Of a stretch of DNA of 64,000 nucleotides, positions 1,526 through 5,643 are shown piece by piece. Origin of the DNA: Candidatus Heimdallarchaeota archaeon (GTDB taxonomy: Archaea; Asgardarchaeota; Heimdallarchaeia; JABLTI01); NCBI GenBank assembly GCA_019056785.1, contig DXJV01000087.1, forward strand, positions 1 to 64,000, in the 5' to 3' direction. Position numbers and translations under genes: made by a program. The notes beneath the pieces were generated by a model. It made no database searches and had not been told where the DNA came from. It was given only the letters and a program-made list of their open reading frames with translations. How positions within the stretch are numbered: the stretch's first letter is position 1; every line of letters begins with the position of its first letter.

Positions 1526-2332
1526 ATGGAAGAATTCCAAGTAAAACGAACAATCAAGCGGCTGGAGATCAGCATCCAAACGCCAATAGCAAAAACCGGG
1601 AATGGAGCAGTGGCAGGGGGGAAGGTGAATAATTTGATGCTGATAGGAACAACCAAAGGAGAGAAAGGAAAAGAAGGAAAAAAATATGTCGTGAAAGGAT
1701 TACGAGGATGGCTAAACCACGCAATGATGGCACTGGCAAAAGAAATGGGAGTAGAAGTATGCCATACTTCGGAGAAAACAGAAAGCCAGAAAGGAGAGCC
1801 TTTACTGCCAGAAGGATTTCATGCGGCAGGAAAGTGCCTTGAAAACGGGGAGGAGTGCATAAAACACCGGCTGATGGGATCATTTGGCAAACAGTCAAAG
1901 CTAAAGTTCGAACCGGTGGTCATCACATCGAAAGCTTGCAAAGGAAAAGAGGACGAAGAGGTTCAGCAAATGCACATCGCAACTGAGGTAAGAAACGCGT
2001 TAGCCTTTCATACAAAAAAGGCGATACAAGACTTCGGCGAGCGCTACTTCGCAGGAACATTTACTCTAAGAATTGAGTTCAGAACAAAACTGGAAGCGGA
2101 AGAATTGGGTTTCCTATTGAAAAGCTTACTCTACGCTCCAGAAATCGGGCTCGGAGCAGCAGTGAACAATGGGGCAGGAAAAATGAAAATACTCAAAGTC
2201 GCCTTGCAAGAGGTCGTAAGGGAACGAACATTCGATCAAAAAGGAAGAGTAGTAGAAAGGGAGCGGGTGCGCAACCTCTGGAAAGAAATGCAGGAAGGAT
2301 TGAAAGCATGGCCGAAAAAAGTAAGCGCTTAA
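1526..2332 (+). CDS. cas7: Cas7-group RAMP protein (Csm3-like backbone subunit)
   Basis: RAMP layout: beta1 'LEISIQTPI', helix 'GLRGWLNHAM', Cys/His cluster (VCH..GKC..CIKHRLMGS), 'SKLKF' strand, thumb 'EVRNAL', C-terminal G-rich loop 'GLGAAVNNGAGKM'. Confidence 0.8.
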   Translation: MEEFQVKRTIKRLEISIQTPIAKTGNGAVAGGKVNNLMLIGTTKGEKGKEGKKYVVKGLRGWLNHAMMALAKEMGVEVCHTSEKTESQKGEPLLPEGFHAAGKCLENGEECIKHRLMGSFGKQSKLKFEPVVITSKACKGKEDEEVQQMHIATEVRNALAFHTKKAIQDFGERYFAGTFTLRIEFRTKLEAEELGFLLKSLLYAPEIGLGAAVNNGAGKMKILKVALQEVVRERTFDQKGRVVERERVRNLWKEMQEGLKAWPKKVSA

Positions 2333-3393
2333 GACTCATCGGAAAATTACTAACACCAATAGTGATAGAAAAACCAACGTTCTACATCAAAGGGTGTAGA
2401 GTAACGATAACAAAAAAAGCAGAGGAAAAAGAAAATGGCAGATTTGCCTACCCGGAAAAATTGTTTTATGGAAAACTGGTCAAAGATAGAAGAAGGCCTC
2501 CAACAGTAAAAACATGCTTTCAAGGATTCGTGGTAGTGGACTGCCCAGGAACAAACAATCAAGCAAAGAAAAAATTGCAGTGGTTCTTTGGCTTGGACGG
2601 TTTGGGAAGACAGCAAAACGAAGGCATGGGGAGAATTCGCTGGTTGCAAAAAAAAGAAGTCGCCTACGTGAAAAAAGAGCCGCCGAAGAAAAAACTCCGG
2701 ATAAGAAAAGGATTGGGCTACTACCCAAAACCAATGGTTCGTGCAATAACCGCACTCCTCCTGCATGACTTTGTGCACACAGAAAAACACGACAGCAAGA
2801 TCTACCACGAGGTGGAAATAACTGACGAACTTATGAGAGAAGCATGCAAAAACCACCATACGAGTGTGAATCGAAACGAAAACTGGCTCATACCAATTAT
2901 CCAGAAATACGATAGATTAGCAGCACTCATCAATAGAAAAAAACCACTAAGAAAAGAGAAACGATACGACTACGAAAATGGAGCAATAAATTGCAAACAA
3001 ATAGCAGAGTTAATAACTGAAAAACAAAAATCGGCTAACGCACTTTATAACTACATCTACTACGACAAACAATTCGCAAGGTTCTATGAGTCAATAAACT
3101 ACGCAAACAACAGTAGCCTAAGAAAACACCTCCTTCTAGCAGTAAACCTATTAATCAATGATTTTAAAAAGGGAAGACTGGTCATCAAAAATAACAAAGT
3201 AATGATAGTTTCTTCATCGGCAAAAGATAAAGAAGAAACCAAAAAATTCTTATCTAAGCCAAAGGTGCTGAAACGCATCTACCCGCCGAAAAAAGGGGCA
3301 GAAAGCAAAATCGCTGCCCTCCAGGAACGGCCTGTGGAGGAGAAAAACCATCCGAAAAACACAGAAAAAAGCCACTTGCGGCGGGATACCTAA
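2308..3393 (+). CDS. cas5: Cas5-like RAMP fused to a Cas10-type (circularly permuted) HD nuclease domain
   Basis: N-terminal 'LIGKLLTPI' and G-loop 'GLGRQQNEGMGRI'; then ALLLHDFVH, HH, YDRLAA and a distal SLRKH helix equivalent to the SLxDH of Cas10/Csm1. Overlaps cas7 by 25 nt. Confidence 0.75.
   Translation: MAEKSKRLRLIGKLLTPIVIEKPTFYIKGCRVTITKKAEEKENGRFAYPEKLFYGKLVKDRRRPPTVKTCFQGFVVVDCPGTNNQAKKKLQWFFGLDGLGRQQNEGMGRIRWLQKKEVAYVKKEPPKKKLRIRKGLGYYPKPMVRAITALLLHDFVHTEKHDSKIYHEVEITDELMREACKNHHTSVNRNENWLIPIIQKYDRLAALINRKKPLRKEKRYDYENGAINCKQIAELITEKQKSANALYNYIYYDKQFARFYESINYANNSSLRKHLLLAVNLLINDFKKGRLVIKNNKVMIVSSSAKDKEETKKFLSKPKVLKRIYPPKKGAESKIAALQERPVEEKNHPKNTEKSHLRRDT
3263..3391 (+). ncRNA. Candidate structured RNA (or ssDNA hairpin element) overlapping the 3' end of cas5-HD
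   Basis: Stems read directly: AGGTGC/GCATCT (3263-68/3275-80), CCCGCCG/CGGCGGG (3282-88/3379-85), GGGGCAG/CTGCCCT (3295-3301/3314-20), CAGG/CCTG and CCTCCA/TGGAGG (3318-40). A-rich loops; G-U pairs favour the + strand. Confidence 0.45.
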
Positions 3394-3423
3394 AGAAAAA
3401 TAAATTTAGTGAGTTGTAAACCT

Positions 3424-5643
3424 ATGGTTCGTGTTAAGAATCCTGATGAGATTCGTGCTATGGTTAAGGATCATCCTATGGAGTTGCGTCGCGTTTTCAG
3501 CATTGCTGCTCATATTGATCATGGTAAGACTACTACTAGTGATTACCTTCTTCGTCGTGCTGGTTTGATGAGTGATCATGATGCTGGCAGCAAGCTTATG
3601 ACTGACAGTGACGAGGAGGAGCAGGAGCGCGGCATTACTATTTTCACCAGTGTTGTTCTTCTCAGTTATGAGTTTAAGGGTCAGACGTATTTATTTGAGA
3701 TTAACGACACTCCTGGTCACATTTCCTTTACTGGTGAGGTTAGTCGTGCTCTTCGTGGCAGTGACGGTGCTATTATTCTTGTTGATGCTCTCGAGGGTGT
3801 TATGACCCAGACTGAGACCAACATTCGTTTGGCTGTTGGTGAGGAGATGTGCAAGCCTGTTTTGTTCATTAACAAGGTTGACCGTCTTATTAGCGAGCTC
3901 AAGCTTCCTCCCAAGAAGGTTTTTGAACGTATTGATACTATTATTTCGCAGGTGAATGCGCTTATCCGTAAGATTGCTCCCAAGGAGTTTGCCAAGGACT
4001 GGCAAGTCTCCTTTGCCAAGAACAGTGTTGCCATTGGTTCTGCCAAGGATGGCTGGGCGTTCACGCTTGACATTTTGAAGGAGTCTGGTCACAATGACCC
4101 CAGTATTGTGTTCGAGAAATACGCCGAAAACGACAAGCAGTGGCTCCGTGACAATCTCCACCTTGAGGACTCGCTTTTGCGTATGGTCATCCAGCACCTT
4201 CCCTCTCCTGCCGACGCGCAGAAATATAAGATCCCGAAGATCTGGGGCGGTGACCTCGAGTCCGAGGTTGGGCAAGCACTCCTTAACTGCGACCGCAACG
4301 GTCCTTTGTTGGGGATGATCACCAAAGTCTTCATTGACCCCAAAAGTAAGCGCCCAACGCTTATCGGTCGAGTGTTCTCTGGTACCATCCGCGCCGGCCA
4401 GAACATCCAGCTCATCAGTCAGAAGAAGAAAGTCCCGGTGAAACGCCTTGGTGTCATGGAAATTACTGACATTCTGGATTGTGACGAAATCCCCGCCGGC
4501 AACTTGTTTGCGGTGTTTGGCTTCATTGCGCCCAGTGGTGAGTCCTTCATCGAGCCTGGTCTAGACGCTCCTGGCTTTGAAGAGATCACCTACGCAGCTG
4601 AGCCTGTTGTCAGCCGTGCGATTGAGGCTGTCGACCCCCAAGACATTGCCAAGCTTGGTGATGTTGTCTCCAAGTGGATCATGGCCGACCCAACAGCCTC
4701 CTTCCGTCATGACAAAGAGAGCAACAAATATATTCTCGCTGGCATTGACCCCTTACAGATCGAAATTCTCACCAAGCGCATTCACGAGCAGGTGAAAATA
4801 CGCGTCTTCGACCCGATCATTGTTTACCGCGAACGCATCTCCCATGCCGGTGAGGAAATCCACACTAAATCACCGAACGGCCATAACCGGCTCAAACTCT
4901 ATATCGAGCCACTGGACGAGAAAGCCATCGAGCTCATCAAGAAAGGAGAAATAACTGCTGGACAGAATGAAAAAGAGCGTGCTGCCATTCTTCGCGACAA
5001 AGCCGGTTGGGACGCCAAATTTGCGCGCAAAATCTGGGACATCGAAGGACAGAACATGCTTATCGATGCAAGTACCGGTGTCCAACGAATGGACAGGATC
5101 AAACAATATGTCATTCAGATCTTCAAGGACTTTACCTATTCTGCTTCTATTGCAAAAGAACCAACCCTCGGGTTGAAGGTCGTCATTACAGACGCGACTA
5201 TCCACACTGACCCCGCCCACACGGGCTTCTCAGAAATCCTGGGAATGACGACTGCTGCTCTGAACATTTCCTTCCTCACCGCTGAACCCCACCTTTATGA
5301 ACCGATGCTCCGTGTTGACATCAAAACACCAAAAGAGTATATGGGAAGCATCATGACTATTATCAATCAAAATCGCGGCCGTGTCGAAGATACCATCGAT
5401 GAAGGTGAACAGATGCGCATTCGTGGCATAATCCCCACAGTGCAAACACTGGGCGACTTTGCAGAGAACATCCGAAGTGCCACCTCCGGAAGAGCCTTCT
5501 GGGGATATGAATTCACAGGCTTCGAACAAGTACCTGCCAGCATGGAGAAAGAGATCATTCTCGAAATCCGAAAGCGCAAAGGCTTATCCGAAGAAATCCC
5601 CACCCCTGAGAACTGGGCACGATTTGTGTATAAACGGCAATAA
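3424..5643 (+). CDS. fusA: Translation elongation factor EF-2 family GTPase
   Basis: AHIDHGKTT, ERGITI, DTPGH, NKVD motifs; SPNGHNRL and EPM..IRSATSGRA in domains IV-V. Likely start ATG 3424 (track starts at GTG 3409). Confidence 0.95.
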   Translation: MVRVKNPDEIRAMVKDHPMELRRVFSIAAHIDHGKTTTSDYLLRRAGLMSDHDAGSKLMTDSDEEEQERGITIFTSVVLLSYEFKGQTYLFEINDTPGHISFTGEVSRALRGSDGAIILVDALEGVMTQTETNIRLAVGEEMCKPVLFINKVDRLISELKLPPKKVFERIDTIISQVNALIRKIAPKEFAKDWQVSFAKNSVAIGSAKDGWAFTLDILKESGHNDPSIVFEKYAENDKQWLRDNLHLEDSLLRMVIQHLPSPADAQKYKIPKIWGGDLESEVGQALLNCDRNGPLLGMITKVFIDPKSKRPTLIGRVFSGTIRAGQNIQLISQKKKVPVKRLGVMEITDILDCDEIPAGNLFAVFGFIAPSGESFIEPGLDAPGFEEITYAAEPVVSRAIEAVDPQDIAKLGDVVSKWIMADPTASFRHDKESNKYILAGIDPLQIEILTKRIHEQVKIRVFDPIIVYRERISHAGEEIHTKSPNGHNRLKLYIEPLDEKAIELIKKGEITAGQNEKERAAILRDKAGWDAKFARKIWDIEGQNMLIDASTGVQRMDRIKQYVIQIFKDFTYSASIAKEPTLGLKVVITDATIHTDPAHTGFSEILGMTTAALNISFLTAEPHLYEPMLRVDIKTPKEYMGSIMTIINQNRGRVEDTIDEGEQMRIRGIIPTVQTLGDFAENIRSATSGRAFWGYEFTGFEQVPASMEKEIILEIRKRKGLSEEIPTPENWARFVYKRQ

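Follow-up and report, generated by a model that had tools for sequence, protein, structure and literature searches.

In vertebrate mitochondrial DNA, gradients at four-fold degenerate sites are attributed to the time spent single-stranded. The junction described here, at the start of the EF-2 gene of a Candidatus Heimdallarchaeota archaeon, resembles that case in that one base is nearly lost at the neutral sites of one strand with the proteins kept intact, and in that the strength of the effect is graded by distance from a start point. It differs, however, in forming islands of 0.5-9 kb within a chromosome of ~3 Mb, mirrored about a point and many per genome, and in being specific to A and T with the choice between C and T untouched, whereas C->T and A->G changes dominate in the mitochondrion. 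Free-standing homing endonuclease genes, such as seg and mob of phage T4, co-convert flanking markers. Here too a conserved housekeeping gene has a mobile nuclease cassette beside it, the influence on the flank weakens away from a fixed site, and break-repair synthesis outward in both directions is proposed from a putative cleavage site; recent co-conversion between species is nevertheless not seen (identity at four-fold sites is at chance), and we know of no strand-compositional footprint of homing.

Skew jumps associated with replication, termed “S-jumps” or N-domains, were reportedly described in human by Touchon et al. in 2005. Such jumps, at bacterial oriC and in human, are reviewed in PMC3269012 and PMC10030826. 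The present flips share with them the upward jump, the T-rich strand leaving the site both ways, and sharp jumps of one polarity followed by a gradual return, but they are of kilobase rather than replichore scale, lack an initiator gene and origin repeats, lie in some cases inside genes and are of far larger amplitude (A3, the fraction of third positions occupied by A, of 0.02). Transcription-associated mutational asymmetry at the 5' ends of mammalian genes, with R-loop-linked skew, is treated in PMC3787257, and fungi in PMC3315797; no archaeal case was found in the searchable literature. The likeness lies in a T/G-rich, A-poor non-template strand near the gene start, decaying over 1-2 kb and mirrored upstream. 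Unlike the mammalian pattern, ribosomal-protein genes are exempt here, arms extend through convergent as well as divergent genes, and one of the flips lies near the 3' end of a gene.

The genes bordering EF-2 recall the ARAMPs, the array-less, type III-derived RAMP systems of Asgard archaea (Makarova et al. 2020, in the summaries given by PMC8730458 and PMC12669027), in pairing a Cas7-like gene with a nuclease-domain Cas5-like RAMP gene, in having no CRISPR array and in being restricted to Asgard archaea. The passages on ARAMP in these accounts mention a distinct Cas1 as well as HNH or PD-(D/E)xK nucleases, whereas the present copy has an HD fusion, is partnered in relatives by a LAGLIDADG-domain gene and occupies a conserved spot directly upstream of EF-2; compositional peculiarities go unmentioned in the same passages.

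The EF-2 locus

The window, i.e. the whole stretch of 64,000 nucleotides that was analysed, carries the features collected in Table 1.

Table 1. Features at and around the EF-2 switch point (coordinates in the window).
Feature	Coordinates	Strand	Characteristics
HEPN-like gene, 300 aa	284..1186	-	third positions unbiased, AT3 skew -0.07; outside the skewed tract
AbrB/MazE-type antitoxin gene, 53 aa	1239..1397	-	PF04014, E 2.9e-9; unbiased
ARAMP Cas7-like RAMP gene	1526..2332	+	left arm: T3 0.09, A3 0.46, AT3 skew +0.67
ARAMP Cas5-like RAMP fused to HD	2308..3393	+	left arm: T3 0.13, A3 0.44, AT3 skew +0.55
Switch point	3393..3424	.	AT skew of both arms flips; A/T-rich stretch and TTAGTGAGTTGT just 5' of EF-2 ATG 3424
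Archaeal EF-2 gene, right arm	3409..5643	+	TIGR00490 aEF-2, E 1.6e-199; all five EF-G/EF-2 Pfam domains
GT4 glycosyltransferase gene	6141..7451	+	residual mild T excess, AT3 skew -0.22; tail of right arm

The genes upstream of EF-2 are an ARAMP pair, one encoding a Cas7-like protein and the other a fusion of a Cas5-like RAMP with HD. No Pfam or NCBIfam match was obtained for the Cas7-like reading frame; its AlphaFold model (pLDDT 78) resembles Cas7 subunits of types VII, IV and III, with Foldseek E-values down to 1.6e-9. Fold matches of the Cas5-like-HD protein are weak (E at least 0.008) and nearly all to CRISPR RAMP subunits. Its homologues occur in Asgard MAGs only, every one labelled hypothetical, and the family is multi-copy, with H153, D154, H161, H183 and H184 invariant among 25 sequences. 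No Cas1 or LAGLIDADG gene is present in the window. Further left, the AbrB gene forms the edge of the A-rich tract, the match of the HEPN-like gene to the RiboL-PSP-HEPN Pfam family is weak (E 4.7e-4, under the curated cut-off), and contigs from two other samples part from the window sequence leftward of 1570.

EF-2 likely starts at ATG 3424 as opposed to GTG 3409 of the listed reading frame, and the switch-point segment with TTAGTGAGTTGT is probably the EF-2 promoter and leader; the same motif lies 5' of EF-2 in the sister genus, where no gene adjoins. Neither repeats nor an Rfam family were found within this segment.

A preliminary description, made from the letters of the DNA, had counted three A-ending codons among 220 in EF-2 at 3421-4080 (TTA 3691, GAA 3925 and CAA 4003), 21 among its last 60 codons and nine T-ending codons among the first 100 of the Cas7-like gene, all of which were reproduced exactly. 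In sliding windows of 40 codons, A-ending codons number 0-2 from 3409 to ~4250 (A3 ~0.02), stay low at 3-6 until ~4850 and thereafter reach 7-14, close to normal at the 3' end, while T-ending codons drop from 20-29 to ~8-10 and C-ending codons climb from 3-10 to 15-20. Given the genome mean (A3 0.32; T3 0.33), the binomial chance of at most four A in 220 sites is 2e-30, and an A3 of 0.02 or less is reached by two of the 17,547 sliding 220-codon windows of the genome. The genome-wide scan of third-position skew that had been advised placed the largest AT-skew jump of the 2.87-Mb MAG at 3372-3404 (left minus right = 1.43), with the change point refined to 3404 (junction ~3393-3424).

The bias is specific, A being the base affected to the right of the switch point and T to its left. 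Four-fold sites in EF-2 codons 1-180 comprise A 0.00, C 0.16, G 0.04 and T 0.80, and Lys, Glu and Gln codons end in G at a frequency of 0.93 (0.28 in the genome), with the C/T two-fold codons unaffected (0.59 vs 0.68). The ARAMP genes (1526-3393) show the complement, T being avoided at four-fold and C/T sites with the A/G choice unaffected. On the strand leading 5'->3' away from the switch point A is avoided; for EF-2 this is the top strand, for the ARAMP genes the bottom one. The right arm decays as a gradient. The left arm has a box shape with the same extent as the ARAMP genes, stopping abruptly at their border. The earlier caveats, of a left side without gradient and of exempt AbrB and HEPN genes, hold. 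The bias is also not seen in the ribosomal-protein cluster at 29805-37199 (AAA 187, AAG 113; GAA 87, GAG 41), in keeping with the earlier argument that expression level does not explain it.

Conservation in related genomes

Independent metagenome contigs from three runs span 3400, and both the ARAMP-EF-2 adjacency and the bias are common to five genomes of the same genus (G004, G005, G007, G008 and G010); a chimeric assembly at ~3400, against which the preliminary description had advised a check, is thereby excluded. The 5' avoidance of A3 was likewise looked for, as had been suggested, in an EF-2 orthologue without the adjacent module: that of the sister genus (G011), with no gene within the available 391 nt upstream, has no A3 depletion (A3 0.35), a result in line with the preliminary description. 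Tract length differs between species, the depletion in G008 running through the whole of EF-2 into an inserted, oppositely oriented ABC/FtsX island, across which A on the EF-2 strand stays at 0.12-0.27. Flip positions are stable across the genus. Four-fold sites between congeners are saturated, their identity equalling the chance expectation from composition, and the bias is therefore an equilibrium maintained through saturating divergence and not an imported recoded fragment.

Recurrence of the flip and its relation to nuclease cassettes

The site is not unique: the same one-polarity flip occurs at ~15-24 other fixed sites, most without a RAMP module, including EF-1alpha, an E2-like gene and the interiors of PPDK, actin, small GTPase and ClC channel genes. 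Among jumps of at least 0.8, 15 are A|T vs 0 T|A, and all seven of at least 1.0 set an A-rich tract against a T-rich tract in the same order. The switch point is fixed and resembles a bacterial origin in polarity, in agreement with the preliminary description. Tracts on contigs C70, C51 and C65 pass through genes of both orientations; the bias follows the DNA strand rather than gene sense, as the preliminary description had maintained. Within PPDK, A3 of 32 and T3 of 0 in 40 codons give way to A3 of 2 and T3 of 22 at codon 796 of 901, a codon that coincides with a contig break in G002 and G009. The skewed tracts are islands of 0.5-9 kb, and the flips are enriched near low-GC3 genes (42% vs 22%) and near contig ends (38% vs 18%); no sequence motif common to them was found.

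Translational codon bias was rejected, given that ribosomal-protein genes are exempt, that the skew follows the strand and that PPDK, actin, GTPase and ClC genes contain flips. Since the flip recurs at other fixed sites, some of them intragenic, a local strand-specific mutational footprint at the DNA level is the likely reading, in preference to codon optimisation or assembly error, and we infer that the bias originates in mutation or repair rather than in selection on codons.

The majority of the strongest flips have ARAMP and LAGLIDADG cassettes next to them. In this MAG, each of the three ARAMP loci abuts genes with A3 of 0.02-0.04, and six of six ARAMP/LAGLIDADG loci lie within ~4 kb of a jump of at least 0.7, such neighbourhoods making up ~9% of the genome, an association noticed post hoc in one fragmented MAG. 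The RAMP-HD complex had been proposed as the agent at this site, a proposal weakened by ~30 ARAMP copies in relatives without an A-depleted arm downstream; no recognised nuclease cassette was found at the EF-1alpha, C90, C57 and C25 flips. For the A-depleted arm, ARAMP is neither necessary nor sufficient. ARAMP pairs elsewhere have an A3-rich, T3-poor bias by themselves (box-shaped skew of +0.3 to +0.6, neighbours neutral), so the left arm is largely a general trait of the family, and the right-arm type also occurs without ARAMP. Being box-shaped, coextensive with ARAMP and found without a right arm, the left arm may have a cause separate from that of the right.

Candidate explanations

We favour repair synthesis at cassette borders over promoter R-loops, and these over a local replication start. 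Under promoter-anchored transcription or R-loop asymmetry, which we consider rather unlikely, strong promoters (EF-2 and EF-1alpha, for instance) would expose the non-template strand, from which A would be lost with decay along read-through, and left arms would arise from divergent or antisense transcription. Many flips do lie at or slightly inside the 5' end of the outward-facing gene (EF-2 0, EF-1alpha +65 nt, E2 0, actin ~+130, GTPase ~+200), A3 increases at every step through the EF-1alpha operon (0.036, 0.071, 0.113, 0.149, 0.195), a weak 5'->3' gradient exists genome-wide (AT3 skew -0.10 to -0.02, rising in 62% of genes), and genes for which high expression would be anticipated are among those affected (EF-2, EF-1alpha, actin and a solute-binding protein). 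A surplus of A->G changes on the non-transcribed strand, along with a 5'-proximal asymmetry, has reportedly been described in mammals (Green in 2003; Polak and Arndt in 2008), in support of this explanation. However, ribosomal-protein genes escape the bias, 14 tRNA genes have no clear arms, the PPDK flip falls late within one mRNA, the C51 tract keeps its skew across the promoter region of a divergent gene pair that it covers, and among congeners the EF-1alpha arm varies in strength between -0.9 and roughly 0; where genes are co-oriented, left arms would, in addition, require putative antisense RNAs.

A local replication initiation site, from which leading strands would set out rich in T and poor in A at the junction, in the manner of bacterial origins and human initiation zones, would account for the uniform polarity, the indifference to gene orientation, the intragenic flips and the stable positions. 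It is improbable nonetheless, and the origin suggested in the preliminary description loses ground with it: orc1/cdc6 is absent from the window and from the surroundings of the flips, no origin-type repeats were found in the window, the clear orc1/cdc6 locus of the genome (C76:7093-8175) has no flip (maximal jump 0.4), arms fade within 1-9 kb whereas the skew at contig scale is just ~+0.1, and the left arm ends abruptly at the ARAMP border.

Equally improbable is a chance juxtaposition of the A3-rich codon habit of ARAMP with a preference acting on RNA or translation over the 5' part of EF-2. The box-shaped ARAMP pairs elsewhere fit it, and the preference for T and avoidance of G at four-fold sites in the EF-2 of all relatives, with the C3-rich 3' two-thirds in this MAG, are a normal high-expression signature; against it stand the shared order of all seven largest jumps, arms that extend into oppositely oriented genes, flips inside single genes, the replacement of NNC by NNT in the arm (opposite to the usual G34-tRNA preference) and the fact that an A:T to T:A flip leaves duplex properties unaltered. 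Import by the module of its own recoded, cleavage-resistant EF-2 5' part in one event, as also proposed earlier, is largely refuted and very improbable, for although genes in the genus have duplicated ends of the kind that site-specific integration typically produces (the PPDK 3' end in G005, which starts exactly at the flip codon, and the EF-2 3' end in G008), the N-terminal third of EF-2 shows 86-91% identity to its counterparts in congeners and the sister genus and is no less vertical than the remainder of the gene, arm four-fold sites are at chance identity between species, this MAG has no second EF-2 5' copy, and the tract forms a gradient, its length differing by species, rather than a block.

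Nuclease-triggered, error-prone repair, by comparison, is a live option. To our knowledge, the error spectrum of no Asgard repair polymerase has been described, which counts against repair, and single-strand damage during break resection would predict the opposite polarity. In the repair model, nicking or breakage would occur at the border of mobile nuclease cassettes, through the ARAMP HD nuclease and a LAGLIDADG-type partner, and error-biased repair synthesis would restart repeatedly at the same point and proceed outward over 1-6 kb; the A-poor strands would then be exactly the pair newly synthesised. Such restarting synthesis at cassette borders is only tentatively put forward as the source, falling well short of an even chance. 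The statement as a whole, that at the EF-2 junction a local bias of neutral sites, acting at the level of the DNA strand, switches at a fixed point and is caused by cassette-border repair synthesis, is offered as the best of the explanations considered, one that may hold while being somewhat less than probable.

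The strand-skew switch at the start of the EF-2 gene

The window covers the opening 64 kb of contig C49 in a 2.87-Mb metagenome-assembled genome (MAG; G000) of 102 contigs and 38% G+C, which homologue names assign to the Heimdall-type Asgard archaea. Between the putative Cas5-like RAMP-HD (Cas5-HD) gene and the EF-2 gene, at ~3393-3424, the third-position AT skew reverses with a jump of 1.43, and the codon endings counted by hand in the preliminary description were exactly reproduced on recount. In sliding windows along EF-2, only 0-2 codons per 40 end in A (A3) over ~280 codons, followed by a stepwise rise to 14 per 40; T-ending codons (T3) drop from 29 to ~8 per 40 along the gene as C-ending codons (C3) increase. 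Equally A-poor stretches of 220 codons are found in only 2 of the 17,547 sliding windows genome-wide.

The four-fold degenerate sites of EF-2 codons 1-180 are composed of A 0.00, C 0.16, G 0.04, and T 0.80, and 93% of the Lys, Glu, and Gln codons in this segment end in G (vs 28% in the genome), with no change in the C/T choice of two-fold codons. The two genes on the left, which probably form an Asgard RAMP (ARAMP) pair, an array-less CRISPR-derived module, are the complement of EF-2: they avoid T at four-fold and C/T sites, with the A/G choice unaltered. Given these complementary patterns, a single rule applies on both sides, namely that the strand leaving the junction 5' to 3' is the one without A. 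As to pressure at the amino-acid level, G000 has the lowest A content over the first two codon positions of EF-2 residues 1-220 (0.316 vs 0.32-0.354), a difference too slight to use.

From its middle to its 3' end (3950-5643), EF-2 of G000 is unusually rich in C3 (0.36-0.42, compared with 0.13-0.25 in same-genus genomes and a genome mean of 0.18), a second compositional oddity seen in the G000 species only. A 16-nt direct repeat (15/16 identical), one copy of which lies within the Cas5-HD gene and the other in the EF-2 start codon region, encodes K-P-M-V-R in both places; it was rejected as a meaningful link between the two genes because such a match is at about chance level in 8 kb and other family members do not share the Cas5-HD copy. 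Rfam gave zero matches within 1-12000 at a cut-off of E 0.1, and nothing was found by a promoter and terminator scan using bacterial-type models, which are not applicable to archaea.

Coordinates of the features and loci discussed (window positions unless a locus, L, or contig, C, is named; G000, subject MAG; G004, G005, and G008, same-genus genomes)
Feature	Location	Basis
Cas7-like RAMP gene (P0001)	1526-2332	No Pfam/NCBIfam profile match; model matches Cas7 subunits
Putative Cas5-like RAMP-HD gene (P0002)	2308-3393	No Pfam/NCBIfam profile match; weak fold matches
Archaeal EF-2 gene	3409-5643	TIGR00490, E 1.6e-199
AbrB/MazE antitoxin gene and weak HEPN-like gene	Left of the ARAMP pair	
16-nt direct repeat	2728-2743 and 3418-3433	
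LAGLIDADG_3 gene	L095:501-2096 (G004); equivalents in L075, L077, L083, L092, L096; G000:C47:91206-92900	
Split EF-1alpha gene	L001:6646-6946 (= G000:C84:166645-166945, minus strand)	
Low-GC3 island	G000:C32:8722-12476	
Strongly T3-rich gene	G000:C32:5812-8475	
orc1/cdc6 locus	G000:C76:7093-8175	TIGR02928, over cut-off
Weak orc1/cdc6 match	G000:C3:2172-3206	TIGR02928, weak
Duplicated PPDK end	L154:6333-6662 (G005:C110:13332-13661)	Compared with L112
Inserted island behind EF-2	L158:626-8421 (G008:C83:6125-13920)	

Probable identity of the gene pair as an ARAMP module

The gene pair on the left fits the ARAMP class as characterised in PMC8730458 and PMC12669027. The structural model of the Cas7-like protein matched Cas7 chains of type VII, IV, and III systems in Foldseek (E 1.6e-9 to 1e-5), and the weak fold matches of the Cas5-like protein (E 0.008 or worse) were almost all CRISPR RAMP subunits, its invariant H153-D154...H161...H183-H184 being consistent with an HD site. 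All 60 homologues with a source name came from Asgard MAGs (Heimdall-, Hod-, Thor- and others), and a CRISPR array was absent in 1-12000.

Many ARAMP Cas7/Cas5-HD pairs in the relatives are preceded by a divergently oriented gene of ~530-570 aa with a predicted LAGLIDADG_3 domain, which may represent an undescribed third component of this ARAMP variant. The ARAMP copy in the window lacks this gene and has the AbrB/HEPN pair in its place. Contigs from other samples match the window up to 1570, 3392, and 3716 before continuing into unrelated sequence, and these loose ends indicate that strains differ both at the left edge of the ARAMP pair and around the start of EF-2.

A genome-wide class of flips

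When third positions in G000 were scored on the plus strand over flanks of 250 sites each, jumps of at least 0.8 comprised 15 from A-rich to T-rich and none in reverse, with seven and none, respectively, at a threshold of at least 1.0. The junction, called extreme in the preliminary description, is indeed the largest jump in the genome, and it is not unique, as flips of the same polarity occur at other sites too. The flip at EF-1alpha is followed by a five-gene A3 gradient (0.036, 0.071, 0.113, 0.149, and 0.195), and an E2-like gene (A3 0.022) and a 138-codon ORF (A3 0.043) also belong to the class. The average gene exhibits a weak 5' to 3' trend.

Flip positions are conserved within the genus, with variable strength. 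The flip in PPDK falls on the same codon in G004, G005, G007, and G009, all weaker than in G000, and the EF-1alpha arm (the skewed tract) declines from -0.9 in G000 to ~-0.5 in G004 and G005 and is almost gone in the remaining congeners. A modest enrichment of flips is seen close to low-GC3 genes and to contig ends. When 11 flips were compared all against all by blastn-short and by shared 8-mers, A-runs were the only common motif.

The EF-1alpha gene of G000 is split, a 92-aa N-terminal ORF stopping ~20 nt before the 363-aa remainder with ~8 residues (GHRDF... motif) not accounted for, and the congeners possess a single open frame of 466-492 aa; the split reflects a frameshift, a small intervening sequence, or an assembly error. 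C32 carries a low-GC3 island with genes for an HNH-like zinc-finger protein and two methyltransferases, one of them a Dam-type (DPPY) adenine methyltransferase; the island is divergent from a strongly T3-rich gene. The final 207 nt of contig C79 encode PPDK residues 1-69 (98.5% identical), so C79 and C16 are neighbours overlapping at the PPDK 5' end.

The skew follows the DNA strand

The claim that transcription direction fails to explain the bias was borne out, as same-strand skew continues through oppositely oriented genes. The A-poor tract extends over the entire EF-2 gene in G008 and G010; in G008, A depletion (0.12-0.27) carries on through an inserted ABC/FtsX island with genes facing the opposite way, and tracts on C70, C51, and C65 of G000 traverse genes of both orientations. 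Flips also occur inside genes. At codon ~796 of PPDK, A at third positions drops from 32/40 to 2/40 and T rises from 0/40 to 22/40, and intragenic flips were likewise found in the ClC channel, actin, and small GTPase genes of G000. Since an A:T to T:A flip leaves the duplex unaltered, only a process that distinguishes the strands can be responsible. The footprint acts at the level of the DNA strand, affects A and T specifically, extends in both directions from a fixed anchor point, and has been maintained over time; its two-sided, strand-specific character stands as the preliminary description had proposed, and we infer that a mutational process underlies it.

Association with mobile cassettes and possible integration sites

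The two full ARAMP pairs and one fragment in G000 each abut one of the most A-depleted genes of the genome. The comparison with an EF-2 orthologue lacking the module, to which the preliminary description had attached weight, came out in the direction it required: EF-2 of G011 (sister genus, 83% protein identity) is unbiased, and the 391 nt before it hold only stop-rich, non-coding DNA. ARAMP as a sufficient cause was nonetheless rejected, given that ~30 further copies in relatives have no A-depleted arm downstream; the EF-1alpha and other flips have no ARAMP. ARAMP pairs elsewhere are A3-rich and T3-poor by themselves, in a box-shaped bias (+0.3 to +0.6) that leaves their neighbours neutral, and the left arm is therefore largely a family trait.

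LAGLIDADG_3-domain genes of G000 adjoin the C47 flip, the PPDK flip (two genes), and a T-rich gene on C32. Taking ARAMP and LAGLIDADG loci together, 6/6 lie within ~4 kb of a jump of at least 0.7, neighbourhoods which amount to ~9% of the genome, an association spotted post hoc in one fragmented genome.

The flip codon of PPDK is a contig break point in G002 and G009. G005 has the final ~105 PPDK codons twice: the extra copy, 92% identical in nucleotides to the resident end, begins exactly at the flip codon with unrelated DNA before it, and looks like an att-type duplication left by integration into the PPDK 3' end. In G008, an island of ~7.7 kb carrying genes for an ABC ATPase and for two FtsX-type permeases of ~970 aa sits between EF-2 and its usual GT4 neighbour, with the final 40 EF-2 codons repeated behind it, pointing to the EF-2 3' end as an integration site in the genus. 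Judged from sequence, the contig breaks and the duplicated PPDK and EF-2 ends are probably marks of site-specific recombination at gene ends. At the junction of the window itself, no second EF-2 5' copy was found in G000 and no LAGLIDADG gene in the window.

Candidate mechanisms

The two outward-running strands are exactly those that would be newly made or laid bare by three processes: repair synthesis following a break or nick at the switch point, leading-strand synthesis from a local start, and divergent transcription displacing the non-template strands. Repair at the borders of mobile cassettes is tentatively placed first, still leaning towards doubt, because it would cover the intragenic flips, the links to cassettes and duplications, the variation among congeners, the decay over kilobases, and the uniform polarity.

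Promoter or R-loop effects, ranked second and considered unlikely, would fit the many flips at gene 5' ends, the operon gradients, and the metagene trend. Against asymmetry from transcription stand the C51 tract, which crosses a divergent gene pair, the PPDK flip inside one gene, and the unaffected ribosomal-protein and tRNA genes. A 14-orthologue alignment searched for an internal promoter at the PPDK flip revealed codon conservation and nothing else, and the 14 tRNA genes called by aragorn were uninformative as a test of transcription, with a mean upstream-minus-downstream skew of 0.07.

A local replication start is ranked third and appears quite improbable. Its canonical form, an origin at the junction as the polarity had suggested to the preliminary description, is unsupported. 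As that description had noted, orc1/cdc6 is absent from the window, and a TIGR02928 search placed none near any strong flip either; its only matches were the clear locus on C76, which has no flip, and the weak match on C3. The junction shows neither origin recognition boxes nor an intergenic A/T-rich unwinding element: 3300-3500 holds no repeat family, the gap between the Cas5-HD and EF-2 genes measures only ~15-30 nt, and several homologous flips lie within coding sequence. The contig-scale skew is only ~+0.1.

The suggestion that the element had supplied a foreign or recoded 5' EF-2 did not survive either. Four-fold-site identity between G000 and its congeners equals chance given local composition (i.e., is saturated) inside and outside the arm, the N-terminal third of EF-2 shows the expected similarity to relatives, and there is no second 5' copy; together these argue that the bias is a long-maintained equilibrium and not a recently imported or recoded block. 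For polarising substitutions, G000 and its congeners are too saturated at four-fold sites, and the close pairs G004/G005 and G008/G010 have too few differing sites per segment.

Expression-driven codon bias as the sole cause was rejected, in keeping with the preliminary description, since the ribosomal-protein cluster uses A-ending codons freely (AAA 187, AAG 113; A3 ~0.33), sharing none of the preference, and the skew follows the strand rather than the coding orientation. An assembly chimera at ~3400, which would have undone the whole observation, is ruled out by bridging contigs (1570-3758, 2771-3469, and 3279-4514) from independent assemblies of three public metagenome runs, which belong to different studies, and by the same ARAMP-EF-2 arrangement in five same-genus genomes (A3 of EF-2 codons 1-220, 0.06-0.11; upstream AT skew, ~+0.4).

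Significance

Strand asymmetry, like its origin in mutation, is textbook knowledge, and compositional asymmetry between strands is normally weak, chromosome-scale, and used for finding origins. The tracts described here differ in being extreme (A3 ~0.02), kilobases long, sharply edged, and of one polarity, with a strength equal to that of animal mitochondria; the bias has been held for longer than the age of the genus and is able to flip inside a conserved gene. Full-text searches of the searchable literature turned up no account of kilobase, mirror-image, near-saturated skew islands in archaea. Such islands distort the inference of expression or horizontal transfer from codon usage, and they appear to coincide with assembly breaks.

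Asgard archaea are the closest archaeal relatives of eukaryotes, and we know of no replication or repair maps for them. If mutational, the skew islands would mark recurrent strand-specific DNA transactions in these organisms and would offer a computational handle for locating such sites in uncultured ones. The association with ARAMP and LAGLIDADG genes may likewise provide the first candidate phenotype for an array-less CRISPR derivative. In its broadest form, which we regard as on balance somewhat unlikely, the proposal would be that Heimdall-type Asgard chromosomes record fixed points at which DNA synthesis starts repeatedly, often at the borders of ARAMP-HD/LAGLIDADG cassettes and sometimes in housekeeping genes, with an adenine-depleting, strand-specific mutation gradient running outward on both sides for kilobases, and with the starts arising from nuclease-triggered repair or homing or from eukaryote-like dispersed replication initiation. 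If true, this would constitute a previously undescribed archaeal mutational process and the first functional clue for ARAMP systems.
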